17,240 nucleotides of DNA from Takakia lepidozioides (GCA_030704615.1 JAKLZA010000328.1:1-17240); one strand, 5' to 3'. Counted from the stretch's first letter, positions 1 to 17,240 are shown. The notes: generated by a model not told the origin, from the sequence alone. A program made the numbers and translations.

Positions 1-281
1 AAGGGAATGGGCATTCCCACAGCTCGGTACAGGATGGTGTCTGACGGGGGAACGTGCCATTCGATTCCGCAACCTCCGTCGTTACCTAGCACGACAATGG
101 TCTCGTCAACCTGTCCAGGAACATCCTTCCTTTCTTCTTCCAAATAAACTGTGCCCGGTTTGAGCTTGAATTTGGAACAAAGGTAAGTTTCAGTCACTCT
201 GCAAAGTCCTCCCTCGTTTGGGATCCAGGCTCTCCCAAGTTGCGGAGGACAGCAAACTATAGCGTAGGAATTCGGAGCCAT
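1..281 (-). CDS. Hypothetical protein, runs off the left edge of the window
   Basis: Manual translation from ATG at 281: MAPNSYAIVCCPPQLGRAWIPNEGGLCRVTETYLCSKFKLKPGTVYLEEERKDVPGQVDETIVVLGNDGGCGIEWHVPPSDTILYRAVGMPIP..., with no stop before position 1. The same frame stays open upstream to ~572, so the start is uncertain. Not in the ORF track, presumably because it is truncated. No family recognised. Confidence 0.5.
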   Translation of the reverse strand, partial: MAPNSYAIVCCPPQLGRAWIPNEGGLCRVTETYLCSKFKLKPGTVYLEEERKDVPGQVDETIVVLGNDGGCGIEWHVPPSDTILYRAVGMPIP

Positions 282-696
282 CGAACACCGCACGGAGTTG
301 GCAAGTGCGAGGTTCAGTATAGCGACAGACCAAGGCTCACAGGCACCATGCGGAGTCCATCGACGATTGGAAGTTGCACATTGAAGTGGAAAGTATTGTT
401 TCAAGCTACATGCATGAAGGTGAGAGGTTTGATTCCATAGCCAGTGAGTATGACAATGATGGCCGATTCGGCGACGAAATAACATCTCCTGACAGTTTCT
501 CCTGAGGGTGGATCCAGCAGTATTCTCGATGCAGACAGGAACGTTCGCACTGACAAGTGCCAGGACAGCTGGTTAAAACAGTCAGACAACCAAGTTGTGC
601 TCATCAAGACTGGCCGCAATTGTGTTGTTTCGGAACAATGCAACCCATTGAGGTTCTAGATTTCCCGTCCCGAGTGATTCTTTCGATTGCTGGTGG

Positions 697-3172
697 ACGG
701 AAATACGGCGCCGCATTTCCGCATTTCCGTATTGCATCTTGGTCATGCACCAGAGCGACGGAAATGCGGCACTGAGTTTCCGTCCGGGGGAAACCTTTAT
801 ACTCTCCAGAACGGAAATGCGGTAACGCATTTCCATCCAGCAAGCACGGTATGTGAAGGTGGAACGGAAATGCGGTACCGCATTTCCGTTCTGATTGAGA
901 ATTATGAACAACGGGAACAGAAATGCGGCACCGCATTTCCGTCCGAGTCGCACTTTTCCGACATTTCAGAACGAAAAAGCGGCGCCGCATTTCCATTTTG
1001 TATCTGATGAATGGAGCTGAGGGATAGAAATGCTGCAGCACATTTCCGTCTTTAAAAGACATTCATACTCTCCAGAACGGAAATGCGGTACCGCATTTTC
1101 ATTCAACAAGCACGGTATGTGAAGGTGGAACGGAAATGCGGTACCGCATTTCCGTTCTGATTGAGATTTACGAACAACGGGAACAGAAATGCGGCACCGC
1201 ATTTCCGTCCGAGTCGCACTTTCGACATTCCAGAACGGAAATGCGGCGCCGCATTTCCATTTTGTATCTGATGAATGGAGCTGAGGGATAGAAATGCTGC
1301 AGCACATTTCCGTCCTTAGAAGACATTCATACTCTCCAGAACGGAAATGCGGTACCGCATTTTCATTCAACAAGCACGGTATGTGAAGGTGGAACGGAAA
1401 TGCGGTACCGCATTTCCGTTCTGATTGAGATTTCGAACAACGGGAACAGAAATACGGCACCGCATTTCCGTCCGAGTCGCACTTTTCGACATTCCAGAAC
1501 GGAAATGCGGCGCCGCATTTCCATTTTGTATCTGATGAATGGAGCTGAAGGATAGAAATGCTTGCAACACATTTCCGTCCTTAAAAGACATTCATACTCT
1601 CCAGAACGGAAATGCGGGTACCGCATTTCATTCAACAAGCACGGTATGTGAAGGGTGGAACGGAAATGCGGTACCGCATTTCCGTTCTGATTGAGATTTA
1701 CGAACAACGGGAACAGGAAATGCGGCACCGCATTTCCGTTCGAGTCGCACTTTTCGACATTCCAGAACGGAAATGCGGCGCCGCATTTCCATTTTGTATC
1801 TGATGAATGGAGCTGAGGGATAGAAATGCTGCAGCACATTTCCATCCTTAAAAGACATTCATACTCTCCAGAACGGAAATGCGGTACCGCATTTTCATTC
1901 AACAAGCACGGTATGTGAAGGTGGAACGGAAATGCGGTACCGCATTTCCGTTCTGATTGAGATTTACGAACAACGGGAACAAAAATGCGGCACCGCATTC
2001 CGTCCGAGTCGCACTTTTCGACATTCCAGAACGGAAATGCGGCGCCGCATTCCATTTTGTATCTGATGCATGGAGCCGAGTGCGATTCCGACAGCTTCAT
2101 ACAGCGCAATTCCGACCGCTTGAGACATTCATACTATCCAGAACGGAAATGCGGCAACGCATTACGTTCTGACTGAAAATCGTGAACCATCTGAACTAAA
2201 ATGCGGCACCGTATTTCCATCCGAGTCGCACCAACCAACATTCCAGAATGACTGAAAATCGTGAACAGTCGGAACTGAAATGCGGCAACGGATTTCCATC
2301 CGAGTCGCACTTCCAACATTCCAGGAACGGAATGTATTAGATTCAAAAGGGAAATGCGGCACCGCATTCCGTTCTGATGAAATATCCTGAAACCTCGGAA
2401 CTGAAATGCGGTACCGCATTTCCGTCGGAGTCGCACCTTCCGACATTCCAAACGGAAATGCGGCGCCCGCATTTCCGTTTTGTATGTGAGGCACGGAGCT
2501 GTGGAACGAAAATGCGGCACGCCATTTCCGCCCGTCAGACGTTAATACTCTACAGAACGGAAATGCGGTACCGCATTTCCATTCTGACTGAAAATCGTGC
2601 GCAACGGGAACAGAAATCCGGCATCGCATTTCCGTTCCAGTCGCACCTTCCGACATTCTAGAACGGAAATGCGGCGCCGCATTTCCGTTTTGTATATTGG
2701 GCCTGGAGCTGTGCTACGAAAATGTGTAGCAGCATTCCATCCATGTGAGACCTTCAAAGTTTCCGGACCGGAAATGCGGGCACCGCATTTCTGTCCAGGT
2801 GAGACCTCTATACTTTCCCGAACGGAAATGTGGCACGGCATTTCCATTCATCATCTAACGGATGTGAAGTGGGAACGGAAATGCGGTACCGCATTTCCGT
2901 TCACATTGAAAATCATGAACCACGGGAATAGAAATGTTGTGCCTCATTCCCGTCCAATCGCACCTTTCGACTTCCAGAACGGAAATGCGGCGCCGCATTC
3001 CCTTTGAATCTCATACTTGGAGTGTGGGACGAAATGCGGCACCGTATTTCCGTTCAACAACTAAGGTATGTGAAGGTGGAACGGAAATGCGGGCCGCATT
3101 TCTTTCCAACAAGTACGGATGTGTAGCTTCGTGATGGTACTTAACGGAAATGCGGCGCGCATTCGCATTTTC
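697..3172. repeat. Tandem array of ~46 palindromes GGAAATGCGGYRCCGCATTTCC at a 53-bp period
   Basis: AAATGC half-site starts at 762, 815, 868, 921, 975, 1028, 1081, 1134, 1187, 1239, 1292, 1345 and onward (52-54 bp steps). Copies continue with more divergence and a few irregular gaps to ~3148. The best copies extend to 28 bp (AACGGAAATGCGGTACCGCATTTCCGTT). Confidence 0.97.
801..2132. repeat. Higher-order repeat: 5 near-identical ~266-bp units, each made of 5 x 53-bp monomers
   Basis: Anchor ACTCTCCAGAACGGAAATGC recurs at 801, 1067, 1331, 1596, 1863 and (ACTATCC variant) 2133. The five different inter-palindrome spacers recur in the same order in each unit. Confidence 0.95.
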
Positions 3173-3512
3173 GCTCCAACTCATCAGACGCTGGGACGGA
3201 AATACCTTGAAAGTGAACCGTGGAGCAACGGAATTGCTGCACATGTCGGCACTCTATCTGACTGAAGGGCATGAGGCGGCGCGGCCTGACCGTTCGATAA
3301 TGATGTTTGTTTTTCGGACGGCAGGCGTACCCTCAACGATTCGAATTTCGTAATGACGCAAACTCCCCGAGGAGACACTTTCGTCCAACCCTTTCGACCC
3401 AAGTGGTGCATCACCGCCGTTTCATCTACTTTTGTAGGTGTCTCCTCAGTCACCCCTCTCGCGCCCTTTCCATCTGCACTCTTTGGCCCTTTTTCCTCTC
3501 TCTGTTCTTCTT

Positions 3513-6500
3513 ATGTCGAACCTGAGAGGGGGGGAGTTCGTGCACCAGCCAGGAGTCGAGGAGCTAGCTGCAGCACGTACACCCACCCGATCCCCCGAGC
3601 GCGGGTATTCCTGCCGGGCCTAGCCCTCTGCGATTCAAAGACGCGTCTTCGAAGGGCAAGTTCAAAGTCCCAGAGACGACTCGCGTTCTTCGGTCATGGA
3701 GAATCGCCAGCAGGGGTCGGGCCCTTCTCCAGCAAAGTCGAAGAAGAAGCAGCCGTCCCTCTACTGGCTTCTGAACCGGCTCAGGCCGATTCACCCCCCC
3801 CAACGCGAATGAAGCAGCAGGGTAGAAGACAGATTCAATTGCAGCAGACACCTTCACAGGCAAGGATGAGGAAGCAGAAGGCGACAGCGAACAAATCTAA
3901 AAACAGCTTCACGAGCTGAAGCTCAGTTCTGGAGGGAGGATTCCCGCCCTTTTGAAGATGTTAGGCCGACTCTGATGCAACGAGGGCAATGGGAGGAATC
4001 GACCGTTGATCTCGATTTGGTACCGGAAGGAGGAGGTGTACCGCTGCACGTTCGAGCAAGACCTCACCACGAATGAGCAAGCAGGCCCGAGGAGGCCCTC
4101 TGCAATGGCAGAGAATTGCCCGCAAACAGGCCCAGGAGTGCAGATCCAGTTGAGGATGCGCCAGCTGCTCAGCCACTACCGGACCCTACAGAATGTCTCC
4201 GGAGGATTTCAAACAGTGCAGCGGATAAAATGTGGAGGAGAACCACAGTAGCATGGCAGAGTTCTGGGGAGCAGGGTATTCCAGCGGACTCTTCGAATCC
4301 CACTCTGTCGCATGGTCTCCCTTCCCATCGTCAGGCAAGACCTTCCCGGAGATGTGGATAAGCTTCGTTTCGCATTTCGAGAAGGGGTACCGTTCGGGAT
4401 CGCAGCGTTTTACGTTTCCATTGAGAATGAGGATGGCGAAACTCGTGGACCCACTGCCGATGAATTGTTCAACGTGGGATACCCACTGGCACACTCGCAA
4501 CCACGAATTCGAGGCGGACGCTGAAGGGTGATCCCGACTTCGGCCATATGTCGGGTTAAAATGTTCTTTGTGTGGGACGGGAATCACCGGACTTCTCGCA
4601 TGGTGGAGTACATCAAGCAGAAACCCTGCCAAGCACATTGGCTGGCATTACATGGTGGAGTGTGTCATCCTCAAGGTGAAGGCGGCAGACTCCTCCCTGC
4701 TCAAGAATGCCATGGCGGACCTCAACTCGTAAGATACTCTTACCCTCCCTAGCACGTTAAAATGCGGTGCCGCATTTCGGTTGCCATTCTGGTTTGTTTC
4801 CGTGCTTCCGTGTACTGAACTGGAGAGTGTGCCTTCGGGTCACTGAAAATGCGTACGTGCAACCCACATGGCACACATGCTGTATAGGGTGAGGAAAATG
4901 TCTCAGTGTACTGATCCGCAGATGGTTGCGGAAAATGCTGGAGCCCGAGCTCATTCAGAAAGCCGTTGCAAAAACAGACCGGACATGGTATCGTCTCACT
5001 ATGGATGGAATGGTGGAGGGATATATGAAGTAGTCGTCCTCCAATTTTCCCTCTGATCACCTTCCCAATTTTCAGTAATGTTTCCACATTGAATCGAATG
5101 TAACGCTTCTGCATGTTTTTGTTGGGCAGTCAAACATCCAAGTTGGATTTGGCCCATGCCAAACGCTTCTTCATGGAAAGTGGGGGCAGGGTCAGGTGCA
5201 AACGTTGCAGTCATTGACTGAGCACTTGAAGGAAGCCGGTGTCAAGTCCAGAACCAAATACAAGTCAAAGCTTGTGAAGCTGGTGGCAATTGCAGGATCT
5301 GGCACTTGAAAGGACTTCATCCCCGAGATTGCAAACACTATTCTCGGGGCCATGCAGCCGACCATGCAATTGGAGAAAACTGCATCACCTCTCAAACGGC
5401 ATGTGTGGAGGCGAAAGAGAAGGTGAGGTTTCAATGCACTGAGAGTTCCTTCCTAGCCAATAGCCACTCTCTTCCAGCTCCGACATTGGATGGAAATGGC
5501 AGACACGGTGGCTGTCGACTGGAATGCATCGAGAGCATAAGGACAATGTGGTCTTTTCCACTCGAAGTTTTCCGACCCTGCAGTGGAGGGGTGGCTCAAC
5601 CGATGACTTGTGGTTCCAGGTAATTCAAGGTACTTTCCCAGATTTGCTTTTCTGAAATGAATTCACTGAAATGCTACGTGAAATTGCAGTTGGGAATCAC
5701 AGTTAATGTCGAATGCCGAAGGAGCGAGTCGAGGCACACAAATTCGTTCGGCTTGTACGTCAAATGGGATGGAACACAGACATTGGAAGATACGTGACAC
5801 GTTTCAGATGTGCGTACAAGCGCAACCTTTTCCGCCAGAGAGCTACGAGACAGCAAGAAGGAGCGTGGAGTTTACACATCAGGAGGGAGCGGGAAAGCTG
5901 CTGCAATGCGAAGTGTTTACAGGTGAAGCACAGCTTGCCTTGTATGCGAAGCCTGGTTACGAGTGGTTGTCTCGGAAAAATGCGGCACCGCATTCGCATT
6001 TTATGTTTTCGGTGTGGCACTCTGCCAGTAGGTGGTCTCAATTTTGCTCACGCATGCTGATGCCTTGCAGGTATATGAAATACGTGCTCCTTCAGACAGG
6101 GGCCCTGGCTCAAGAGCCCCCGTTCTTCATGGCTTGACCGTGGCGGCCCAAGCTGTGTTACACACCCGAGATGCAGAAACAATGGCATCCCGCGCATATC
6201 GTTGGATGCCCGTGGTACCTGGAACCCATTTGTGTTGGCGGTATTGTTACGAGTCTGAGAAAGATCTGCACGCCTTGGCAGAAGAGAAGAGAGAAAGGGA
6301 AAGACGTTGTCCCTGCGGGCCAAAGTCGGCAAAGGAATCTGCTGCTCGGAAGAATCCGGAAAGGCAGCTGAGGATGGCACAAAAAGCGGTGGATGCAGCT
6401 TGCAGGCCCAACAGAGGGGTCGAAAGAAGAGGACTCGCCAGCAAAGCAAGCAGCAGCTGTTGTGACACCCGCCAAAACGAAGAAGAAGCAGAAACGCCTG

Positions 6501-8391
6501 TTCAGGAAGAGGTGAGGAAAGGGACTACGATGGAGACTTTGCAACCAGCACACCCCCCCCAAACGCAGGCTGCCTCCCCTGTGCCCACCGTTGTCAATGA
6601 GAGGCTACGAGAACTGGCTCGGCAAAGACGGCCACTCTTCAACCCCAGGGGGGCACCCTTTCGAGCCGGTGGAAATGAAGAGGCCGAGAAAGTGGCTCCC
6701 GAAACAGTAGTCCAGATGTGTAAATGAGAGTTTTTGGCGGCTTTGGATGGACGGGGCAGCCAAGTTGCATACATGAAGACCATGGAGGGTCTGAAGGGCA
6801 GGACTGAAGAAGGCGACTGCGAGAGCCTTCCGACCACCCGTTCTTTGAGAGGGTGTGTGCAGACAAGGATTGTAGGAGGGGCGGAAATGCCACCGAGTGG
6901 TCTTGCGATATGATCATCTTGGATATTCCGGACGGAGAGCCTGTGGAAGGACTGCAAGCTTTGCCATCTTGGAACAGGTACTCGGAGGACTTTTGGAAAA
7001 AAGGATTCGGGCTTGCCCGCATGGTGTTGGACGACAGAGGCGTGTGGTTGTCCTGGCGAGCAGAGAAAAAAACACTCAGACAGGAATTGCGAAGTGGACC
7101 CGCAAGAGCGCCGTCCCGATTCTGAAAAAGAAGTGGACGTGCATCAACACACTGGGCCTTCGGTCGGAAGGGAAGGAAGAAGGTGATTACGACACTGGCA
7201 CTCGTCCATTCATTTGCTTGGGTGTTTTCAAATGCGGTGCCGCATTCGGTTTCTAATCGTTTTCCCCCTGTGTATGCAGAGACGAAGCAGTTCGATGCAT
7301 ACTGCTTTGTGAAGGAGAACTCCACCTTTGCTTTCCGGAAGGAGGGAGGAAAGGTTGACCCGAACTGCGACCCACTCGATTACGACGTTCTGTTCAACAA
7401 CGTTCCCAAGGAACTTCTCCCTCATAGCCTCACTTCAACGGAAACCCTGCGGTACTCACGGACTCGGAGCCCTGCCTTCATTCAGACAATTATGGAGACA
7501 TGCACAGACGTGGAGGGCACAGTGCTCGACCTCATCTGTGGAACAGGTATGCAGAATCTTGATCTCTGCTGTTCTGCAAATTCTCGTTAGGATGTAGTTC
7601 GCAACATCTGAAGCGCCATGTGGTAATGTGTGGATGGCATTGTAACAGGTGCCTCAATGTGGGCTGGGCGGTTTTCCGACCGGCACCTCTTTGCCTACGA
7701 GGAGGATTCATCCGTGTGGGGATCCCATCTGGAGGGGCTGCAACGGAATGTGAAGGCTCCCGACAGAGCGGAAGTCTCCTCGGATTCGTCGGAGTCCGAG
7801 GAAGACACAGTGGACATTGATGCGGAGGAGAACCCGGAATACGAGTGAGTGCAAACATTGTAAGTTTGCAAAGCCTTCTGGGTCATTTTTGTCAAACGAA
7901 TTTCCCGACTGTGGTTCTCATTAGTCTCGTTGATGATTGTCATGTGCAGGATTGCAGGGTCCGGGTCGAAACATGTAGGGCCTACACTTCCTGCCAGGAA
8001 GAATGTCCCGTTCTTTGCGAGGGCCGATTTCATGACGAGCCCGGTGAGGGACTACTCCCTTCCTAGTTATGCAGCTAAACTCGCAAATACAGCGATTAGA
8101 AGAAGTGAGAATCCCAGTAAAGTAGAGCAGATTTTGGAGAGGGCTAGGGAGGACAGAAGGATAAGGAAAGAGTTGGCAGCAGCTCAGACAGGTAGACGGG
8201 TACGAAAGTACATATGTGATTCAGCGGATGAGAGCGACGCAGACAGGGAGGAAGACGACCCAACGGAGGTGAGATGGACAGTTCCGCAAGGGGAAGATGG
8301 GATTTTCGAAAGCCTGGCCAACGAGCAGTCCGCTGGAGATGAGAGGGCACTGAGGGGGTGGAGGAGAGCAGGACAGTCTAGAACAGGATGA
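3513..8391 (+). CDS. Spliced gene, frameshifted in this copy: ParB/Srx-like N-terminal domain + low-complexity linker + beta-class amino (N6A/N4C) DNA methyltransferase-like domain + acidic tail
   Basis: Frame-hopping translation gives ...IPLCRMVSLPIVRQDLPGDVDKL..F..GYR....AFYVSIENEDGE...KMFFVWDGNHR...WHYMVECVILKVKAADSSLLKNAMADLN, later CDMIILDIPDG...WNRYSEDFWKKGFGLARMVLDDRG...RSPAFIQTIMETCTDVEGTVLDLICGT|GASMWAGRFSDRHLFAYEED. Phase-consistent GT-AG introns at 5923-6070, 7183-7279, 7547-7648 and 7845-7949. Less certain introns at 4729-~4838 (acceptor reads CGG), 5030-5129, 5423-5477 and 5620-5689. Start codon uncertain. Confidence 0.75.
4280..4728 (+). other. ParB/Sulfiredoxin-like domain coding segment
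   Basis: Hydrophobic strand followed by DGNHR (4576-4590) matches the ParB/Srx-fold signature hhhDG.HR. An upstream 'IPL..h......R' segment resembles the ParB N-terminal start. Confidence 0.7.
4760..4777. promoter_or_regulatory. Single palindrome copy inside a predicted intron
   Basis: AAATGCGGTGCCGCATTT within the intron that starts GTAAG at 4729. Confidence 0.75.
5978..5994. promoter_or_regulatory. Single palindrome copy inside a predicted intron
   Basis: AAATGCGGCACCGCATT within intron 5923-6070. Confidence 0.75.
6895..7740 (+). other. Beta-class N6/N4 DNA methyltransferase-like domain coding segment
   Basis: Motif order is IV (DMIILDIPDG, DIPD at 6922-6933, where DPPY/SPPY is expected), then 'ARMVLDDRG' (like RVLKPGG), then motif X-I 'RSPAFIQTIMETCTDVEGTVLDLICGTGASMWAGRFSDRHLFAYEED' (like KP..L...I...T..G..VLDPF.GSG.T..A....R..IG.E.D). 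The 7547-7648 intron splits motif I in phase. Confidence 0.75.
7230..7246. promoter_or_regulatory. Single palindrome copy inside a predicted intron
   Basis: AAATGCGGTGCCGCATT within intron 7183-7279. Confidence 0.75.
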
Positions 8392-8552
8392 GGATTCGGA
8401 TGATTTTCAAGATTAATAGAATTTTAATGAAGTCTCTGTAAATGTAAATTCTCTTCCAGAGTATATAAAGGAAATTCTGCCCGACATTCGTGACCCCTCT
8501 CCAGTGTGCATTCCAGCCACACAATCGCCCAAACCACGACGCTCCCAAAATC

Positions 8553-9287
8553 AGAAATGGGGCACCGCATTTCCAAAACAGGGGAACTCTAAGAACCTCT
8601 TTTCGAAATGCGGCACCGCATTTCCAAAACAGGGGAGGGACTAACTAAATTTTCCATTTCAATGTTGGCATAGTAAAAAGTAATCTGAATTGGAAATGCG
8701 GTGCCGCATTTCCAAAATTCCTTTGTCCACACGCCAGTTTTGGCCTCTCCCGCTCATTGCATGGATGCCACCACGCTTACAGAGGTCGAACAACGAGGTC
8801 GAACAAGGAGGTCGACATGGCGGGATTGAAAATGCGGTGCCGCATTTCAGTATTGGGGATGGTCGTTGTTCGAACTGCAGGCCCATCAGCAAAAAATTGG
8901 CACCGCATTCCATTGTTAAAAAAAGTCGATGACGGACATGGAAATGCGGCGCCGCATTTCCAGAACGGACATCGCAATTTGTCCATTTGCAGACCCTCTC
9001 TCGGAAATGCGGTAACGCATTCCATCGCGCTGGTCGGAAATGTCACACTTTTCGAAGTGTTGTACGGAAATGCGGCACCGCATTCCCTTGTCCAAAAAGA
9101 AGTTTCCATTGCCAAGCTGGAAATGCGTCGCCGCATTTGCAATGCCAACCTCGTTTTCTGATCAATTTATAGACCCGTGTGTGGTATTTCGTGTACCTGG
9201 ACGGAAATGATGCACCGCATTCTTGTCCGACATGGAAATGCGGTGCCGCATTTCGATCCCGACATGGAAATGCGGCGCCGCATTTCG
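8553..9287. repeat. Second cluster of ~12 palindrome copies with mostly unrelated, irregular spacers
   Basis: Half-sites start at about 8555, 8606, 8694, 8830, 8894, 8942, 9005, 9068, 9121, 9205, 9236 and 9268. The last copies form a ~31-32 bp tandem (CCGACATGGAAATGCGGYGCCGCATTTCGAT). Confidence 0.93.
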
Positions 9288-9543
9288 ATGTCCGACATGG
9301 CGTTACTCTGGTATATTCTTGACACATGACTCACATACCGGTTACTCTGCTATATTCATCCGGACAGACACATTGTAGAAATGAGACATCAAATTGTAAA
9401 CAGTGGGCCAATTCCGACAGTTATTCAACACAATGAAACACAATCATACAGAAGTGAGGTACGATGGGTTTATTGATCGGACACGATGTCTCACATTTAC
9501 CAACTGCAGACAAAACTAAGCCCTTCCTCCTTCTACATGGGCT

Positions 9544-10338
9544 TCACCAAGTCGACGGAACTTCGATACCCCTCAAAACAAGCTCATCACTGCTGCGGCA
9601 CCTCGAGGATAACTGCAATTCGGTCGTTCTGCTGCCCTTGCTGGAGCCGACGACAATGTCATGTCCATCAATGATACCACCATCATACATTGACAAGGTC
9701 ACTGTGGGCTCATGTGCCCGTGCGATTCGTCTTCGCAACGCAGCCGAATGTCTCCATACACTGGAAGAGAGAGGGAGTGATCTGCACGTATATAGTTTTC
9801 CCCGGTGCCGTCCTCCCTGGTCCACTTGCAGCAGTTCCAGCGCCAAAGCGAGGCCGTGCGTGATCTATCCGGCATCCCTTTCCAGCTTGGTATATAGACG
9901 AGGCAACAATTTCAGGACCCACGGACCGCATTGACCCTCGCCCTCACCTCGCTCAAAGCGGTAATAGCCCTCCAGATACTCCATTGCGCGCAAAGACTCT
10001 TTGATTCTAGCAGCGTCTGTGAAAACAGAGAGCCAGACAATGATGTCTCCTGATTCTGGTTTGAACATAGCATAATCGTGGCCATGATAAGGGCAGTCGG
10101 CTGGATTTCGGCGGCACGGCATCCTTGAAAAAGAGAGTAGCGGAGTACGCTCAATGACAGCAGCTCCCGGATGGAGGAGGAGCAGCGCGGTGGGGGGTGG
10201 CTGGAAAAAGTTCAAGCTAACGCTTGCAATTTCTCACAAACACTCCAGGGCACATTAAATTTCCCCCCTACAGGATCCTGGACCGATGAAGATTGGCTGC
10301 TGCATGAATGTAGTCCGTTTCAGTTTCCTACCTGCCAT
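9544..10338 (-). CDS. Hypothetical protein A (frameshifted), paralog of 10494-11234
   Basis: Joins ORFs 9865..10215 and 9544..9846: FSRMPCRRNPADCPYHGHDYAMF...GDIIVW...EYLEGYYRFERG...GGRHRGKLYTCRS...SMYDGGIIDGHDIVV...ELVLRGIEV. Start at ATG 10338 is tentative. Confidence 0.65.
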
Positions 10339-10388
10339 GCAAACTATGGGCAGTCACTGCCAGGTGGGCCGATAGCCACTGGACACGA

Positions 10389-10453
10389 CGAAGTCCATCC
10401 CCCTCTTCGATTGTAAATGCGGCGCCGAATTTCCATCGGGGGGATGGACTTCG
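10389..10453. promoter_or_regulatory. Inverted repeat centred on a palindrome copy, between the divergent paralogs
   Basis: CGAAGTCCATCCCCC (10389-10403) and GGGGGATGGACTTCG (10439-10453) form a perfect 15-bp inverted repeat enclosing AAATGCGGCGCCGAATTTCC (10415-10434). Confidence 0.8.
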
Positions 10454-10493
10454 GTGGCAGATCTCAAACTATAACTTGTGATGAGAAAGATAT

Positions 10494-11234
10494 ATGGCTT
10501 CATCCACCGCTGGCGTGATGAACACGTTCCACCTCCGTCGGTGGGTACGGGACCCAGATGCTCCATTATTGGAGGCCGGACTGCTCTTCCGCTTCGTATC
10601 ATTTCCAAAATCTAAGGGCTTCGTAGCTGTCCGCAGGTCATCGGCATCCAAGTCGTCCTCAGGTCCTCCTTTGCAAGGATGCCGTGCTTCCGGAACCGGA
10701 CGACTGCCCCTTTGGAGGCATCGATTATGCAATGTATTCGGCCACATCGGAGACATTGTTATCTGGTACACAGATTACAGAGAAGATACTGGTTCGATTG
10801 TGGAAACATTGGTGGCTTTTGAGTATATCGTAGGCCACTACGCCTTCGAGCGGGGTGACGATCTTGGTTTGAGGAGTCGTGGCTCCTGCGCATCCTCGAT
10901 TCCGATTTTCCCAGCTACGACGGTCACCCATGCAGAAGAAGGCGCACTGCTATGCTGTTGGCGGTGGAACTGGCCACTGAACGTGGGTGGACTCCATCGG
11001 AGAGACCTATTCTCCTCGAGGAGTGCGCTCTCTCTTCTCCATTGTATGGGGACATTCGCATTGGTGTGGACGACGACGAAAACGTGAAGTTCCATATTCG
11101 ATGGTGGTATGATTGAAGGGCAGGACATTGTGGTGAACATCACTAGGGGCGGTACAACGGCTGTTGCAATCGACTTTACATGGAGGAGCCCCAGGACTCA
11201 TGAGCTAGTTCTGAGAGCAGTCGAAGTCCATTGA
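10494..11234 (+). CDS. Hypothetical protein B (frameshifted), paralog of 9544-10338
   Basis: Frame-hopping translation: FARMPCFRN.DDCPFGGIDYAMY...GDIVIW...EYIVGHYAFERG...GGLHRRDLFSSRS...SIFDGGMIEGQDIVVNITRGGTTAVAIDFTWRSPRTHELVLRAVEVH*, with TGA at 11232-11234. Confidence 0.65.
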
Positions 11235-11265
11235 CAACGTGACTTGTATTCAGTAGGCACAGGGC

Positions 11266-11481
11266 TCAAGATTTGAGGGCACAATCAGCACAGTAGAGTG
11301 CGTGCTTCAAATGCAATTCATGTGGATCAATAAAAACCTCATGTGCCCTCTTTTTATTCATTCTGTGTCCATCGTTCCAGAATGCGTCATTGCTCATTTC
11401 GTTTGGGATTGGGGAGTGTGGTGTGAATTTTGCAAATGGCTGGTAGGCTGAAATGGGCCCCATTGTACAGAGCAGTACCAC
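11266..11481 (-). CDS. Possible small protein with His/Cys-rich C-terminus
   Basis: 71-aa ORF ending HEVFIDPHELHLKHALYCADCALKS, convergent with paralog B. No homology recognised. Confidence 0.2.
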   Translation of the reverse strand: MVLLCTMGPISAYQPFAKFTPHSPIPNEMSNDAFWNDGHRMNKKRAHEVFIDPHELHLKHALYCADCALKS

Positions 11482-11630
11482 CTACCATTCGCGAAACATT
11501 GCCTTTCAATATATAATTCTAAATAACATTGCCGAACCTCCTTCATCGGAGGTCTTTCCCCCTATGACCGTGGCTGGCACCCTAAACCCTATTCACCGCG
11601 GACACTCATTTCTGGAAAAATAGTGCTGCT

Positions 11631-11696
11631 GCTCATGTTTTTTCCACACTTACGACTCTGCTCATGGCTCATGCCGCTCATGGCTCATGGCTCATG
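11631..11696. repeat. GCTCATG short repeats
   Basis: Copies at 11631, 11660, 11667, 11676, 11683 and 11690. Confidence 0.85.
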
Positions 11697-11710
11697 AAAT
11701 AGCAGCCCCC

Positions 11711-12400
11711 TGTCACGACCATAGGGAACGGAGAGCAGGACAGGGAACGACTGTGGGGACAACACTGCAAAGGAACATGTCAGTTCACGGACGACGTTAG
11801 TGAGGGAAACGGTTGTTAGAGCCACGGGTAGGAAGATAAAGGAAGAAGCAGGGAATTTTGGGGGAGGATGATGATTCTTGGGGAGCACTTCTGGGTCATG
11901 CATGAGAGGAGATCGGGCGGAGAGCAAAGATGGAGAGCACGGTGAAGGAGGAACGAGGATTAGTAGATGCTTGTTATATGCAAAGCGATAGTGATATCGT
12001 AGAGCAGATTAGAGACACAATGGCTTCGGCCTGATACCTGGTAAATCATAATCTGATACTTATACGATACAATCACAATGTGTAGAGAGATCTGAGTGAA
12101 GCTGTGGAATGAATGGATGAGTTGATGGAATCCAATAGATGATGATGAAGGAAACTGATACTTAATTATCAATGGTAGGTAGCTAACATGAATGCCAAAA
12201 GGGAAACAAATAGGGAACACCCCCATGATACACTAGCTGTAGGTCATGACTGATTGTTCTGCGCGGGCTGAGTTCTTAGAGATTTCCAACTCTTCTATCT
12301 TGGAGTTTCCGCCTCTGATAGCGAAGGGATGGGTGAGTAAAAGCCGCGCGACATTGGCGACCATACTGGGGAACTGAGTCATGAACAACCAGATGTGACA
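11711..12400 (+). repeat. 5' LTR (690 bp)
   Basis: Starts TGTCAC and ends GTGACA (6-bp terminal inverted repeat), followed by a PBS-like sequence and coding sequence. The 3' LTR is outside the window; the predicted TSD would be CCCCC (11706-11710). Confidence 0.8.
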
Positions 12401-12416
12401 GGCATCTGGTGGGATC
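12401..12416 (+). promoter_or_regulatory. Putative primer-binding site
   Basis: GGCATCTGGTGGGATC lies immediately after the LTR. It loosely resembles the complement of a tRNA-Arg 3' end (from memory, not verified) and lacks the T of the canonical TGG. Confidence 0.4.
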
Positions 12417-13695
12417 ATGGTGGTTGGACCATTAAAGAATTGAAGTGAATCAAATTCCCTGTGGAACGAAGGAAGAAAGATTGTCCAAACAATTCTTTCA
12501 AAGGTTCTTGGAATTGCCAGACGGTTGTAAAGAAAATATTCTTAAGCGAGTGCATGATGCTGATCCGGAATGGGGTCTGGAGAAAGGAGTGATAAAGATT
12601 TATCAGGTAGCTGTAGTAGAGGAAGAGCACGTTGGTTACCCACGTTGGTTTATGTGATAGCATTGCTATCCATTAAGCGAGTAGAGTTTGAAGGCTGGGA
12701 AGAAAGAAATAAAGGTGAATGTTTATACTCATATGCATGAAGAGCTTGTACTGGTAAAGAATTGGATTCCAAAGGATATTTTGTGGATCAAACTCACACC
12801 AAGAACAGCTTTTCAGACTTGTTTGCCATATGGTTATATGGTAACGGAGACTTCAAGTATAGCCAAGGGTGCATTGAAGCTTGAAAGAAACCCAGGCATA
12901 TACGAGAGATTACAGAAGAGAGTTTTGGTTATTGCCACATTAAAAGAAATGAAAGACATGGGACATGAGTGATGAAAGAGAAGCTAGACGCCAGAGATAT
13001 TCAGCAAAAAGAGAGAAGCTATCTGAAAGCTAATTATCCATATCTTTGGGAGAGAGGAATAGACATAGGGGAATCATCTGGACCTCTCACACCATTAAGA
13101 TCACAGAGTACATCACCCATACGGAAGAAACTAGAGTTGGATGCCATTCCTTCTGTTTTCTTCGCAAGAAGATTATAAGGGAATTGGTACGAGAAGAAGA
13201 TCAATCACGAGGTGAAGGTGAAAGATCTGAGGTACATCCCTGGATAAAAGATTTGACAGAAATCTTTGATAAGAGTTGGCATGGAACACCAAAATCAGGA
13301 ACTCCAGTTTCTGAAGCGGAAGGTGAAGAAGGAGAAGAGGATGTGGCAGAGCCAACGGAGAGTTCAGACTCTCCAACACCATTACAGTTGAGTTACATGA
13401 GTGAAGAAGAAACCCAAGGGCAGAACTTGGAGGATGAAAACAGAGAGAAGAAATTGGAAGAGGAAGAATATGAAGAAGTAGACCCAACAGCTGAGGTTGA
13501 GACTACAACCAGGACATCCCAACCCGTTGGACCTGGATCAAGTGGAGCACTTGGATCACAGGCCAACGAAGGTGTGGTCGGCTCAGGGGGATCAGGCGGG
13601 CTGCTGGATCTGGCTCTAGGGGGACAGGGAGTGTGGGGGAAGTAGTGCAACTGAAGCTGGGAATACTATGAATATCGTGGGGCCGGAAGCAGGGA
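12417..13695 (+). CDS. Extra 5' ORF or long N-terminal extension of Gag (frameshifted)
   Basis: Abutting plus-strand ORFs 12445..12657, 12688..12972, 12969..13178 and 13046..13645 have protein-like composition, ending in an acidic/Gly-Ser linker. Confidence 0.55.
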
Positions 13696-15100
13696 GTGCT
13701 CAAGGGCCACCACTTGGTGGAAGATCCACCACAAAACAACAGGTCCAGAAGGACCAGCACCAGCAAGGGGGTGCCAGTACCTGTCAGTGGGCAGAAGGTA
13801 GGGCCACAGATGGCGTTACAACCAACACGGGCAAAACCACCCTTTCCAATATATTCAGGAAAACGGGATCCCGATGTACACATTAGCCAATTTGAGCACA
13901 TGTGTATAGTGAACAATGAGAATGGCGATGATGCCAAGATGAGATTGTTTCCTTGTTCACTTATCAAGAAAGCAAGTGAATGGTATGCAAGATTCCCTGA
14001 TAATCATTTCCTAACCTGGAATGGCTTGAATACAACATTTCGAAATAGGTTTAGGACAAGTAAAAACTGAAGATGAAGTGTATGGAAGTTTACACAGTTA
14101 AAGCAAAAGAAGCATGAAACTGTTGAGGAGTATATGGAAAAGATGGAATTGATGATGAAAAAGCTGGCTGCAGTACCGCACCGGGTTACAGAAGACTTGG
14201 TTTGTGAGTGGACTAAGACCTGAGTTGCAAAAGAAAGTGGATATGTTACCCCATAATACAGTGGAGGAGGCATTTGAAACTGCAAACAGGATTGAGCAAT
14301 TGGGAATGCTCAGGAGAGAGAAAAATGATGATGAGGACTCTGAGGATGAGTCAGATGAAGAAGAAGAGCAAGAACTAAAAAGGAAGAGTAAGAGAAAGGG
14401 AAGTTGAAGAGGGATAACTATGAAAAAATATTGGAAGAAATCTTGAAGAAGAAGTATGCCACAGAGGCTGCAACACATTGGAGGAAGGGTGTATGGTGTG
14501 CAAAGTGCCAGAATGAAGGCCATACCACCACAGAATGCCACGTGAAGAAGGAAGAAACACTGTACTATCTGTAAAATGGATAACCATTCTACTGAGAATT
14601 GTTACTACAACAGAAGGACAGCTACAAGAGAACTAGGCAAGTAAGGGTGCGCATCAGGTGCAGCCCCAGCCAAGAAGAAACAATGATCAGGACCACTATG
14701 GTAGGTCTGGTGGTTATAACAATGGCATGGAATGGAGAGGTAATTCAAGAGGGAATTACCAAGGAAATTCCAGAGGCAACTATCAGGGTAATCCAAGGGG
14801 GAATTACCAGCCCGCCGGGAATCAGGATTACAGAAATAATCCAAGAACAGACCAAGGGCGAGGACCCAATGGTGAAGAACTATGTTACTATTGTAATCAG
14901 CCAGGACATCGCAGGGCAGCCTGTTCATTCTGGATAAGACACCAGAATGAGATGAGAGCTCCTGTGAATGAGGGCCCAGTGGTGGCAGCTCACATGGTTA
15001 GGCCATGTGTTGTACCAGAAGTAAGTACAATGATAGTAACAAGAAGTAAAGCCAAAACTAATACCTCCAGTAGTAGAAGAAGAAGATGATGATGAAGGTG
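13696..15100 (+). CDS. gag: Gag: retrotransposon capsid domain plus three CCHC zinc knuckles (frameshifted)
   Basis: PFPIYSGKRDPDVHISQFE...RLFPCSLIKKASEWY...TWNGLNTTFRNRF. CX2CX4HX4C at 14497-14538, 14561-14602 and 14883-14924. GNSRGNYQ x3 repeat near 14739-14810. Confidence 0.88.
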
Positions 15101-15489
15101 GCAATGATATGCCTGAAGATGAAGAGAGACTTGGAAAGATGAGAAGGAACTGCACAAGGACAGTGGCAGATACTATAAGGGAAATGCAGAAGAGTACTGA
15201 TATTCATGTGGCAGATTCCTCTGATTCTGATGGAGAAGAAGAAGGGAGTGAGGAAGAAAGGAAGAAAAGAAGATGCAGACATGCAAAGTAATGAAGAGAC
15301 TTTGGCTGGAAGTAATATGCCAGACCAAAGCAGAAATTACCATTGGACAGTTATTAACAGTGGCACCTTATTGTAGGCATAGGCTGTATCAAGCAATCAA
15401 TCGAATTGCCCAGGAGACAGGAAACACAGACCTGAACAGCAAGGTGACCAGTTATAATGTGAAGCCGGAAGGGCGAGAAACAGTCATGG

Positions 15490-15900
15490 ACTTTGATGAT
15501 TCTATGCCAGTAATCCAATTGAGAATTGGGAGCACAGAACTAACTGATGTACTGATAGATGGAGGTTCTGGAGTAGTAAATATCATGACAGACCAATTAA
15601 GGAAGAAGCTTGGTCTAAGTAACATTGAAACCAGCCCCATTTACAGTAACAATGGCAGATCAAAGAAGTGTACAACCATTGGGATAATAAGAGAATTAAG
15701 ATAAGATAAAGAAGATGATCTTTATGATCACAGTAACTGTGTTGAAAATGGATGAAGTCATGGAGGCTTACTCCTTAATATTTGGACGTCCGTGGCTGAA
15801 ACAGGCCAGGGTATTCCATGACTGGAATTCTAGTTACTAACCGTGCATAATGGGATACACGAGATACAAATTACCACAAAGAAATCTAGTAGATTACCTG
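15490..15900 (+). CDS. pol: Aspartic protease domain (frameshifted)
   Basis: DVLIDGGSGVVNIM catalytic motif, and downstream YSLIFGRPWLKQARVFHDW flap/C-terminal motif. Confidence 0.88.
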
Positions 15901-16229
15901 CTACAAGAAGACCTCGAGGAGTCGAGAGAGAGTATGACTGGAAAGGACGATGGATGAGGACTGGAGGAGGAAGCAGGAGAGCTACCCTATTTGCTGCACA
16001 CCAGAGTGGGAGCAGGTTGCAGAGATTGCGGCTAAGGAAAGTCTAAGTGTTTGAGAGATATCTGCTGTGGTGTAGTGACAGCAACACCAACTGAAGAGGA
16101 AACTAGCATTTACCCATCACATTTCTATGAAGAAAGAGAAGAGAATAGAAATCCTAGAAGAACCAGCCACTGTGAGCTTACAGGATGAAGTGGGTGACTG
16201 GTTGGACAATCACAGCTGATGAGCAAGTG

Positions 16230-17240
16230 AGGGAAGTGAATGTGGGAACTAAAGAGGAACCGAGGATGGTGAAAGTAGGAGCTGATTTGGAGCCGGAGTT
16301 TTTGAGAAGCTAAAAGCTTGTTCATCAAATACAGAGATGTATTTGCTTGGAGCTATGAGGATATAAAAGGGATACCACCTGAAGTCTGTCAGCATAAGAT
16401 TGAATTGGAACCAGGGTCAGTACCAATCAAGCAGGCGAGGTACAGAATGAATCCCAACTACGCACAGAAGGTTGGAGGAGAAGAGATTAAGAAGTTGGCT
16501 GAGGCTAAGTTTATATACCCAATAGAGTATACAACTTGGTTGTCACCCATTGTGATAGTTCCCAAGAAGAATGGTAAACTAAGAGTATGTGTGAACTACA
16601 AGAAGCTGAATGCTTGTATGAAGAAAGATCCTTCCCTTTGCCATTCACAGAAGCAATAGATTAGACACTGTGGCAGGCCATGAGATGTACTCATTCATGG
16701 ATGGCTTCAGTGGTTATAATCAAGTGCAAGTGGCGAGAAGACCAAGGGGAAAACAGCTTTCATCACAGACTGGGGGGCTTATGCATACAAAGTCATGCCC
16801 TTTGGACTTTGTAATGCACCAGCGACCTTTCAGAGAGTGATATGGATCTTTTCATGAGTATCTGGATGATTCATGCAGGTATTCTTGGATGATTTCAGTG
16901 TGTACAGCTCTAAGAATGAGCACTTGCATAAATTGGAGTTAGTTATGTCTGGCCAGATGCAGGATGAGAGGTCTGGGCTGATGAATCCAGAGAAGTGTAC
17001 TTCTGTTGTGAACTCAGGGGTGCTTCTGGACACATGGTGGTAAGAGGGGGATTCTTGTGGATACCAGAAAGACAGAGTCCTTAAAGCATCTCCACCACCA
17101 GTGAATGTTAAAAGTCTAAGGAGATTCCTGGGCCAACCAGTAGGAGTGATCTACAGAAAAAGATTGTCAAAAAGGAAATGCCAAATAGCAGCACCATTGA
17201 CGCATACTCACTGAAAGAGAAAGGATGCAAGTGTTGACTG
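16230..17240 (+). CDS. pol: Reverse transcriptase (frameshifted; truncated by window end)
   Basis: [47 protein letters not shown], and FLDD at 16882-16893. Confidence 0.93.

Follow-up and report, generated by a model that had tools for sequence, protein, structure and literature searches.

Palindromic motif in three introns of a ParB-methyltransferase gene: candidate docking sites for the encoded protein

A perfect 16-bp palindrome occurs once in each of three introns of a predicted ParB-methyltransferase gene within a window of 17,240 nucleotides (the whole stretch of DNA that was analysed, to which all coordinates refer). We consider it rather probable that these copies are docking sites for the protein of the same gene, kept in introns at about one site per 1.2–1.7 kb of a multi-copy mobile element. 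The kind of system is already known, both from ParB-fusion accessory genes and from intronic target motifs. The locus offers an exact candidate site, single per intron and at near-regular distances within its own gene, and widens the range of the gene family to include mosses and a likely plant host.

Results

The gene occupies 3560..7848 on the plus strand (ends approximate), and the window copy contains approximately 30 frame breaks; the fusion of a ParB-like N-terminus to a DNA-modifying domain was seen via the colinear homologs P0040 and P0042. The ParB/Srx-like domain (4291..4728, +) includes a WDGNHR motif, and DGNH, in the region of the nucleotide-binding arginine motif, is nearly invariant across homologs. 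All of the top nine structural matches of a predicted homolog model (pLDDT 75.8) have the ParB/Srx fold, the best being KorB (Z 7.4, rmsd 2.8, 93 aligned; N-terminal domain only), and the best Foldseek rows for the homolog are Noc, KorB, and ParB at E 0.02–0.2. Taken alone, a Z of 7.4 is middling by the structure-comparison tool's own guidance. Neither an HTH nor a C-terminal dimerisation domain was matched by Pfam or NCBIfam, and the full-length model of P0040 reaches a pLDDT of only 35. The methyltransferase domain (6850..7760, +) carries a motif IV-like DIPD ahead of the SAM-binding motif I, VLDLICGTG, which is the order of the beta class, and the sole Pfam match of P0040, with which the window is colinear, is N6_N4_Mtase (PF01555) at residues 903–1119 (30.4 bits vs a cut-off of 26.7). 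The catalytic motif departs from the canonical (D/N/S)PP(Y/F): the error-rich window has DIPD, the moss protein DTPF, and the homologs DTPF or DQPF. The initial annotation had named the gene as ParB plus methyltransferase, and the fold of the homolog model and the PF01555 match agree with this; the gene encodes a predicted ParB/Srx-fold domain fused to a beta-class amino-methyltransferase with putative catalytic activity.

The palindromic core, AATGCGG-YR-CCGCATT (7+2+7), lies without strand assignment at 4761..4776 in intron 1 (centre TG), 5979..5994 in intron 5 (centre CA), and 7231..7246 in intron 6 (centre TG), each with no mismatch. In a motif scan of the window, AAATGCGGYRCCGCATT was matched perfectly at 4760, 5978, and 7230, while the interval from 3049 to 8555 held no further copy at up to three mismatches; elsewhere in the gene there are half-sites only, each with one mismatch. 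The absence of a full copy from the exons, as claimed earlier, is thus borne out. The chance expectation for one perfect core in 718 nt of intron is 6e-7, and the whole window holds 106 strand-matches to the motif against a shuffle mean of 0.12. The total of approximately 58 copies includes an upstream array (696..3165, about 42 copies with a 53-bp period and a 264-bp higher-order unit), a downstream cluster (8555..9285, 12 copies at irregular spacings of 31–136 nt), and a lone copy (10415..10432) centred between two divergently oriented, paralogous unknown genes, none with an assigned strand. The same scan found no copy in the adjacent 5.5-kb retroelement. Among the 16 non-array copies, the CpG in the arms is intact in 29 of 32 half-sites, whereas the central CpG is present in 4 of 16 (Fisher P=9e-6, for copies that are partly non-independent), with a pyrimidine-purine centre in all 16. 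Retention of the arm letters, without co-variation, fits protein recognition of duplex DNA.

To delimit introns, the window was aligned with the colinear moss homolog P0040 (1147 aa) by a spliced method that tolerates frameshifts and takes no account of the motif; it returned a donor at 4729 (acceptor put at 4825) and exactly the intron 5923–6070. Motif-bearing intron 1 (4729..4837, +) directly follows the ParB-like exon; since the top-scoring exon restart after it is 4842 and the loose end of a family contig at 4835 reads ..GCAG ahead of the next exon, at letters that differ in the window, the approximate acceptor is set near 4837. Homologous genomic ORFs that reach this junction end exactly there in 10 of 12 cases. 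Removal of motif-bearing intron 5 (5923..6070, +; 148 nt, phase 2) makes MRSVY-R-YMKYVLL contiguous, aligned to MNRLIY-R-YWKHILL of P0040. Motif-bearing intron 6 (7183..7279, +; 97 nt) lies inside the methyltransferase domain at a position common to homologs, and here the spliced alignment took another path, 7259–7344. We prefer 7183–7279 because homologous ORFs stop at YDDMM/V and resume after Q (CAG); because the block at 7282 fits best against eight homologs (14.2, vs 9.9 for a block at 7200); because the window has 4 extra nt at 7171 and 2 extra nt at 7278 relative to family contigs, differences that indicate a phase-0 intron which, if retained, would cause a frameshift; because all 11 listed variable sites of 7150–7310 fall in the intron (P=0.003, copy-to-copy variation); and because a branch-like CTAAT stands 22 nt upstream of its AG. 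The spliced-alignment reading of 7183–7255 as exon was rejected as an effect of extra letters specific to the window.

Four supported introns carry no motif. Homologous ORFs run off at YLHS/V at intron 2 (5030..5129, +; ends approximate), and intron 7 (7547..7648, +) splits SAM-binding motif I and corresponds to a 34-residue gap in the alignment. Intron 3 (5423..5502, +) and intron 4 (5620..5702, +; acceptor 5689 or 5702) are both spliced out in a single contig from a run guessed to be RNA, and such a joint is absent from two DNA runs; there are signs that the gene is transcribed and spliced. Introns 1, 5, and 6 are not bridged by any contig of the two guessed-RNA runs, a blank that is uninformative. 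One guessed-RNA contig (X14 record 16) is unspliced over 7231–7541 with foreign sequence ahead of the motif, and may be DNA, a truncated copy, or a retained intron. The total of seven introns excludes low-complexity calls at 4195, 6512, and 6720, three past 7716, and a possible intron at 7860–7949. The proposal that the copies at 4760, 5978, and 7230 each lie in a predicted intron therefore stands, supported by the colinear P0040 and by junctions at which homologous ORFs stop or begin; variation among copies adds to this for the third intron.

In a gene that is 17% intronic, uniform placement would put all three gene copies in introns with P about 0.003, but nearly every model that includes coding constraint predicts that exons lack the motif. 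The remaining four introns show at least 6–7 mismatches to the core, such that the idea of a site placed wherever coding constraint allows is too strong; site spacings of 1218, 1252, and 1325 nt point instead to approximately one site per 1.2–1.7 kb. By a post hoc test, introns 1, 5, and 6 are the most evenly spaced of 35 possible triples, and adding the possible intron 7860–7949 leaves the rank at 1 of 56. The flanks of the cores are at chance level (best identity 12–14/30 vs a null best of 13.3), as are local alignment scores between introns and between introns and spacers (P=0.16–0.6), and the intronic copies are surrounded merely by chance duplications of 2–3 nt, with no target-site duplication. 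As the flanks are unrelated to the spacers of the 53-bp array, the evidence supports assigning the motif to the element and not to a satellite next to it, in keeping with the initial annotation.

Conservation of the motif against flanking intron sequence among paralogs, which had been put forward as a check, could be compared in one of the three motif-bearing introns, and the outcome is suggestive and non-significant: none of the 11 variable sites falls inside the third motif, with 7229 and 7249 as the closest (P=0.09 when 18 bp are counted, 0.12 with 16 bp). Ten of these sites come from one contig of a diverged subfamily, whose eleventh difference is unplaced, and a gap of at least 19 without variable sites arises somewhere in 76% of random draws. 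Over the 79 other positions of the intron, that subfamily has 10 differences, and its arms are perfect.

The gene is repeated, as 25,828 and 10,002 contigs from two DNA runs of one sample map to 5.2 kb of it (a depth that does not equal copy number), and its copies fall into two subfamilies; runs X8 and X9, from organisms B and C and with small shares, gave no contigs over 7150–7310. At 0.75 for the gene and 0.83 for the gene pair, the CpG observed/expected ratio exceeds the 0.31 of the adjacent retroelement, a difference compatible with escape from methylation decay, or also with younger age. Window ORFs gave no match to transposase families (element ends not in view), the ORFs scanned held no ParA ATPase (frames broken, element incomplete), and 25 of them had nothing above the Pfam cut-off, as expected with broken frames. 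Rfam returned no matches in 1–11800, none of 161 candidates matched in a homolog search with 7126–7587, and an Atlas search with a 90-aa window piece gave weak unnamed matches only. The 20-bp motif had no matches in viral contigs and four single, unrelated ones in metagenome contigs; paired-motif patterns were absent from prokaryote genomes and viral contigs, and P0040 and P0042 had no related loci in viral or prokaryote contigs. A giant-virus relic is disfavoured, as the gene is spliced and PMC4083422 contains no occurrence of ParB.

Discussion

Under the docking interpretation, a dimer of the protein would recognise the two 7-bp arms and load there, perhaps as a nucleotide-gated clamp of the kind formed by KorB and ParB, after which the loaded protein would spread over approximately 1 kb and mark or occupy the element's own DNA, thereby protecting it from host silencing or controlling its genes. 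The carrier may be a giant DNA transposon whose transposase lies beyond the window or is supplied in trans. We favour this reading on the basis of perfect cores with chance-level flanks, arm CpG that is intact in most half-sites around centres that are all pyrimidine-purine, the invariance of the third motif at the listed variable sites, the even spacing together with the reach of KorB, the ParB/Srx-fold structural matches and the 16-bp length that parS shares, the precedents of Sola1-1, PAG3, and VANC21, the multi-copy contigs of the gene, and its higher CpG ratio than that of the retroelement. The layout fits the element-wide coating suggested earlier, and autoregulation, suggested with it, stays as an alternative for what is putative binding.

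Several observations were counted against the docking interpretation: the undetected HTH, the middling Z, the non-canonical catalytic motif, the non-significant conservation, the post hoc nature of the spacing test, and the unspliced X14 record 16 contig.

Repeated internal motifs are also bound by transposases and TnpA-like proteins, which we likewise counted against it. The sites might be bound by another protein of the element (a transposase, a TnpA-like factor, or the product of the divergent pair) with the ParB-methyltransferase gene merely as host, an explanation we hold to be unlikely. The large arrays on either side of the gene are placed like subterminal repeats, one copy is centred in the divergent pair, and no HTH was detected in the ParB protein by Pfam or structural matches; however, evenly spaced single internal sites would be unnecessary for end recognition, and a 7+2+7 palindrome beside a ParB-fold gene matches the association reported for PAG3 across Plavaka families. 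Neutral spill-over, in which pieces of the satellite or a tiny MITE entered introns while exonic insertions were purged, is very unlikely. Any insert is expected to be absent from exons and the conservation within the intron falls short of significance, but the flanks share nothing with the array spacers or with one another, the short duplications around the copies are at chance level, the arms stay perfect where the subfamily differs elsewhere in the intron, and the retroelement took up no copy. A MITE in particular, a possibility that the initial annotation had raised, is made unlikely by the lack of a shared body between terminal repeats and of a target-site duplication.

Intronic enhancer-like sites are common in plants, and the element may have recruited the site of a host transcription factor, given that the gene appears transcribed and spliced. 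We judge this highly improbable for a palindrome of 14 specific bases in approximately 58 copies on an element that encodes its own candidate binder; to our knowledge, typical plant factor motifs are shorter than 14 specific bases, and we know of none that matches. A role for the palindrome in splicing as an RNA hairpin, or in DNA as a site of recombination or breakage, seems extremely improbable. In introns 1 and 6 it does fold into a stem of 6–7 bp. In one contig, foreign sequence abuts the third core precisely at its left edge, and 5978 is where two DNA joints end (intervening sequence undefined). Nevertheless, intron structure is no greater than in shuffles (z -0.8, +0.4, -0.6), the arms keep their letters instead of co-varying, the majority of copies lie outside the coding span of the gene, and dozens of recombination sites would be expected to delete the interior of the element.

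The Ectocarpus transposon Sola1-1_Ec32 carries an accessory gene for a 1104-aa ParB-like and N4/N6 methyltransferase protein in a giant algal element, and the authors propose that this protein binds and modifies its own transposon (PMC12477816). Likened by domain description, the two share both domains, a length of approximately 1100 aa, and a large repeated element; they differ in that the passages of PMC12477816 consulted name no target word or intronic sites, the host is a brown alga rather than a likely plant, and no transposase is seen here. In Bostrychia, the Plavaka gene PAG3 encodes a ParB fusion beside tandem inverted-repeat arrays (bioRxiv 10.1101/2025.02.11.637652), resembling our locus by description in its ParB-like N-terminus, giant transposon, and adjoining arrays. 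PAG3 is, in contrast, fused to a 2OG oxygenase with the methyltransferase separate (PAG2), and its repeats form adjacent arrays, whereas single, evenly spaced intronic sites occur here as well. The present locus combines the features of ParB-fusion accessory genes, namely the domain fusion, a tandem inverted-repeat array beside the gene, and multiple copies.

In Arabidopsis, the motifs bound by VANC21 lie in introns, among them those of its own gene, and in intergenic and terminal non-coding regions of the transposon that encodes it, and the VANC/VANDAL effect spreads over the element (PMC5735166), as we propose here. The likeness is in the manner of working only, through motifs in non-coding parts including introns of the own gene; the VANC motif is a 9-bp asymmetric word in same-orientation tandem repeats rather than a 16-bp palindrome present once per intron, and VANC has DUF1985/DUF287 domains, which Pfam did not find here, instead of a ParB-fold methyltransferase. 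Closer in fold are ParB-parS, Noc-NBS, and KorB-OB, with a ParB/Srx fold and a G-x-x-R-like motif (DGNHR here; PMC11790492, PMC12704722), and parS, like the word at this locus, is a 16-bp site (PMC8494293). Promoters as far as 1.5 kb away are within range of KorB (PMC11790492), a reach that matches the site spacing. Unlike bacterial ParB-parS, our locus has another word, a spliced eukaryotic gene, and a methyltransferase fusion as in phage orphans, and no ParA or HTH was detected. One such fold-search neighbour with a ParB-methyltransferase, Mycobacterium phage Vincenzo, has no repeated perfect palindrome in the first 50 of its 72 kb and no significant sequence match to the family. Eukaryotic amino-methyltransferases of the beta class and of bacterial origin are represented by N4CMT of bdelloid rotifers (PMC8885841) and MpDN4MT1 of Marchantia (bioRxiv 10.1101/2021.02.12.428880), although those are host genes with an SPPY motif and a chromodomain or no extra domain, neither fused to ParB nor borne on repeats. 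Our literature search found no description of a land-plant ParB-methyltransferase element or of intronic palindromes in one, and Iyer 2011 and preprint supplements may hold more.

If binding and methylation are true, the locus would join VANC/VANDAL as a second, independent case of self-marking, one that combines a clamp from bacteria or phages with a DNA mark from bacteria, and it might serve as a sequence-specific tool for the epigenome. A bolder version, possible but doubtful, is that a land-plant transposon runs true ParB-parS in chromatin, with a nucleotide-gated clamp at parS-like sites, an array phased at five helical turns, introns one clamp-reach apart, element-wide 4mC/6mA as an anti-silencing mark, and DUF3723 of Starships as cousins. 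DUF3723 of fungal Starships is likewise a giant-element accessory gene of unassigned function in the parts consulted of bioRxiv 10.1101/2021.12.13.472469 and 10.1101/2025.02.28.640899; unlike in Starships, there is no Pfam match to PF12520 or DUF3435, the window is without a recombinase, and the element ends are not in view. The language-model features of P0040 215–730 are closest to DUF3723 clusters (0.96, with 177–192 of 256 shared), and we treat this kinship as a lead only.

Intronic copies of the palindrome

The window is eukaryotic, error-rich sequence. An array of palindromes occupies 696-3165, with a period of 53 bp and a higher-order unit of 264 bp. The + strand then carries a spliced gene from about 3560 to 7848, after which come another cluster of the palindrome (8555-9285), two divergent paralogous genes of unknown function that flank one further copy at 10415, and an LTR retroelement with gag and zinc-knuckle from about 11711. 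The initial annotation had placed the same palindrome in three introns of the ParB-methyltransferase gene, with no full copy in exons, and this is real: the word, with its 16-bp core AATGCGG-YR-CCGCATT, matches with 0 mismatches at 4760, 5978, and 7230, and no other copy was found from 3049 to 8555 when up to three mismatches were allowed. Chance origin of the copies is excluded. The remainder of that reading was mostly right, except that the word is not placed wherever coding constraint allows, since four of the seven introns lack it.

Seven introns are supported in the gene. Blind spliced alignment gives introns at 4729, 5030, 5423-5502, 5620, 5923-6070, and 7547-7648, and introns 1, 2, and 6 coincide with the ends or beginnings of homologous ORFs called on genomic contigs. 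At intron 1, 10 of 12 homologous ORFs end, while the P0024 cluster of such ORFs runs through the junction and supplies the following stretch, which the window takes up again at 4842. Introns 3 and 4 are skipped in one contig from a run presumed to be RNA, and that joint is absent from two DNA runs. Intron 6 (7183-7279) was doubtful at first: the window can be read in frame through it, and the blind alignment followed a different path. Contigs of other copies of the gene (family contigs) lack 4 letters that the window has at 7171 and 2 that it has at 7278, and their intron is 97 nt long and in phase 0, as in homologs. All 11 variable sites listed in 7150-7310 lie within intron 6, and the 64 nt of exon there have none (P=0.003), a diverged contig having one more difference, unplaced and outside those 11. 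Against intron 6, one presumed RNA contig, from run X14, retains the sequence between 7231 and 7541. In it, 528 nt of foreign sequence precede the third core and join its left end (7231), either through a break at the palindrome or as an artefact.

The invariant part of the word is 16 bp, a two-base centre flanked by two 7-bp arms. Conservation of the intronic motif, which the initial annotation had proposed to check, is suggestive only: none of the 11 variable sites of intron 6 falls in the motif, the nearest being 7229 and 7249 (P=0.09-0.12). Stronger evidence comes from the window itself, where the intronic cores are perfect and their flanks have only random similarity to one another and to the array spacers. 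The 16 copies outside the array keep the arm CpG in 29 of 32 half-sites and a central CpG in 4 of 16, with a pyrimidine-purine centre in all 16, the series expected from CpG decay. From this pattern we infer a binding site in duplex DNA with a free centre. The six central bases read GGYRCC in all copies, a recognition site in restriction-modification systems (BanI type, or KpnI where it is GGTACC), and could be the methyltransferase's own target.

Successive copies lie 1613, 1218, 1252, and 1325 nt apart, the first distance being measured from the last degenerate copy of the array; the cluster follows, and after it a gap of 1147 nt. Introns 1, 5, and 6 give the most even spacing among the 35 possible intron triples, but 1 in 35 overstates the evidence because the spacing was spotted post hoc.

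The encoded protein

A search with one window ORF gave 27 proteins (E up to 0.001), of which 26 form one family. The profile of that family led to a single long protein, P0040, which has 1147 aa and carries an N6_N4_Mtase domain at residues 903-1119. The moss Ceratodon purpureus provides the only named full-length homolog, which makes a plant host likely. The window gene is colinear with P0040 throughout, with about 30 frame breaks; many of these are peculiar to the window copy or its assembly, because family contigs differ from the window at 199 indel places. A model of the homolog P0042, built from 23 sequences (pLDDT 75.8), has ParB/Srx-fold proteins in all of its top nine structural matches; KorB is the best (Z 7.4, rmsd 2.8 over 93 residues), followed by PadC, SerK, sulfiredoxin, SbnI, and pNOB8 ParB. 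Foldseek on the homolog model agrees weakly, with no row reaching E 0.001. The methyltransferase part has its closest matches, about 30% identical, among the adenine-specific beta-class enzymes that phages and plasmids encode.

For P0040 residues 215-730, the nearest Atlas clusters are fungal DUF3723 proteins (0.96), Starship cargo of unknown function. DUF3723 may be ParB-like; a literature search found no paper joining the two. For 4558-4590 and 8160-8321, longer presumed RNA contigs of 2138 and 2284 nt, present in both such runs, have nothing but the DGNHR-coding stretch in common with the window, which suggests that the organism has a further family of ParB-like genes, diverged from this one.

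Proposed function and alternatives

We consider it rather probable that the gene's own product binds the word: a dimer of the ParB-methyltransferase would recognise it, load there, and spread or loop across about a kilobase, thereby bringing the methyltransferase over the proposed mobile element. From its 16-bp operator, KorB slides as far as 1.5 kb (PMC11790492, partial text). CpG loss is lower in the element than in the adjoining retroelement, which fits protection from host methylation but also a younger age.

No HTH was detected, and binding of the sites by another protein of the element is an unlikely alternative. Neutral spill-over or a MITE would also put copies into introns, and this we regard as improbable; there is no target-site duplication around the intronic copies. 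Slightly below it in probability stands a host factor that binds the word. An RNA hairpin or a recombination site is the least credible explanation of all, and the motif-bearing introns are not unusually structured as RNA.

Binding by the gene's own product has precedents, and the general kind of system is already in print. In Ectocarpus, Sola1-1_Ec32 carries a 1104-aa gene that, like ours, fuses a ParB-like part to an N4/N6 methyltransferase; its authors propose that the product binds and modifies the transposon that carries it (PMC12477816, partial text). Bostrychia Plavaka elements resemble the window in that the ParB-like PAG3 adjoins tandem inverted-repeat arrays (bioRxiv 10.1101/2025.02.11.637652, partial text), and VANDAL21 shares intronic motifs, bound by VANC21 there and in other non-coding parts (PMC5735166, partial text). 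In the available part of a 2025 survey, ParB-N6N4-methyltransferase fusions are phage-enriched and sulfiredoxin is the common eukaryotic member (PMC12704722). Single intronic sites and a land-plant element of this kind have not been described in the literature found. What makes the case valuable is its unusual layout and a target word that is exact and testable.

Surrounding sequence

In the array at 696-3165, the 53-bp period, about five helical turns, occurs in 21 of 38 gaps, and the 264-bp higher-order repeat comprises five units, one of them degenerate. Palindrome pairs with spacers of 15, 29, 33, and 34 nt occur in DNA contigs off the aligned stretch, and further arrays of the word are therefore probable elsewhere in the genome. 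Coding-like sequence left of the array (1-690) could be part of a further element gene, and a 175-aa open frame lies downstream of the methyltransferase exons (7864-8391); neither has a family match. Two divergent paralogous genes of unknown function, also with no family match, come from an old inverted duplication at 9560-11227 whose halves are 69-77% identical in patches of DNA, and the palindrome at 10415 is the centre of the pair, nested in a longer inverted repeat (10389-10453). The Ty3/gypsy-like LTR retroelement at 11711-17240, with gag and zinc-knuckle matches in broken frames, is CpG-depleted (0.31) and free of the palindrome, and it is possibly nested in the element or adjoining it.
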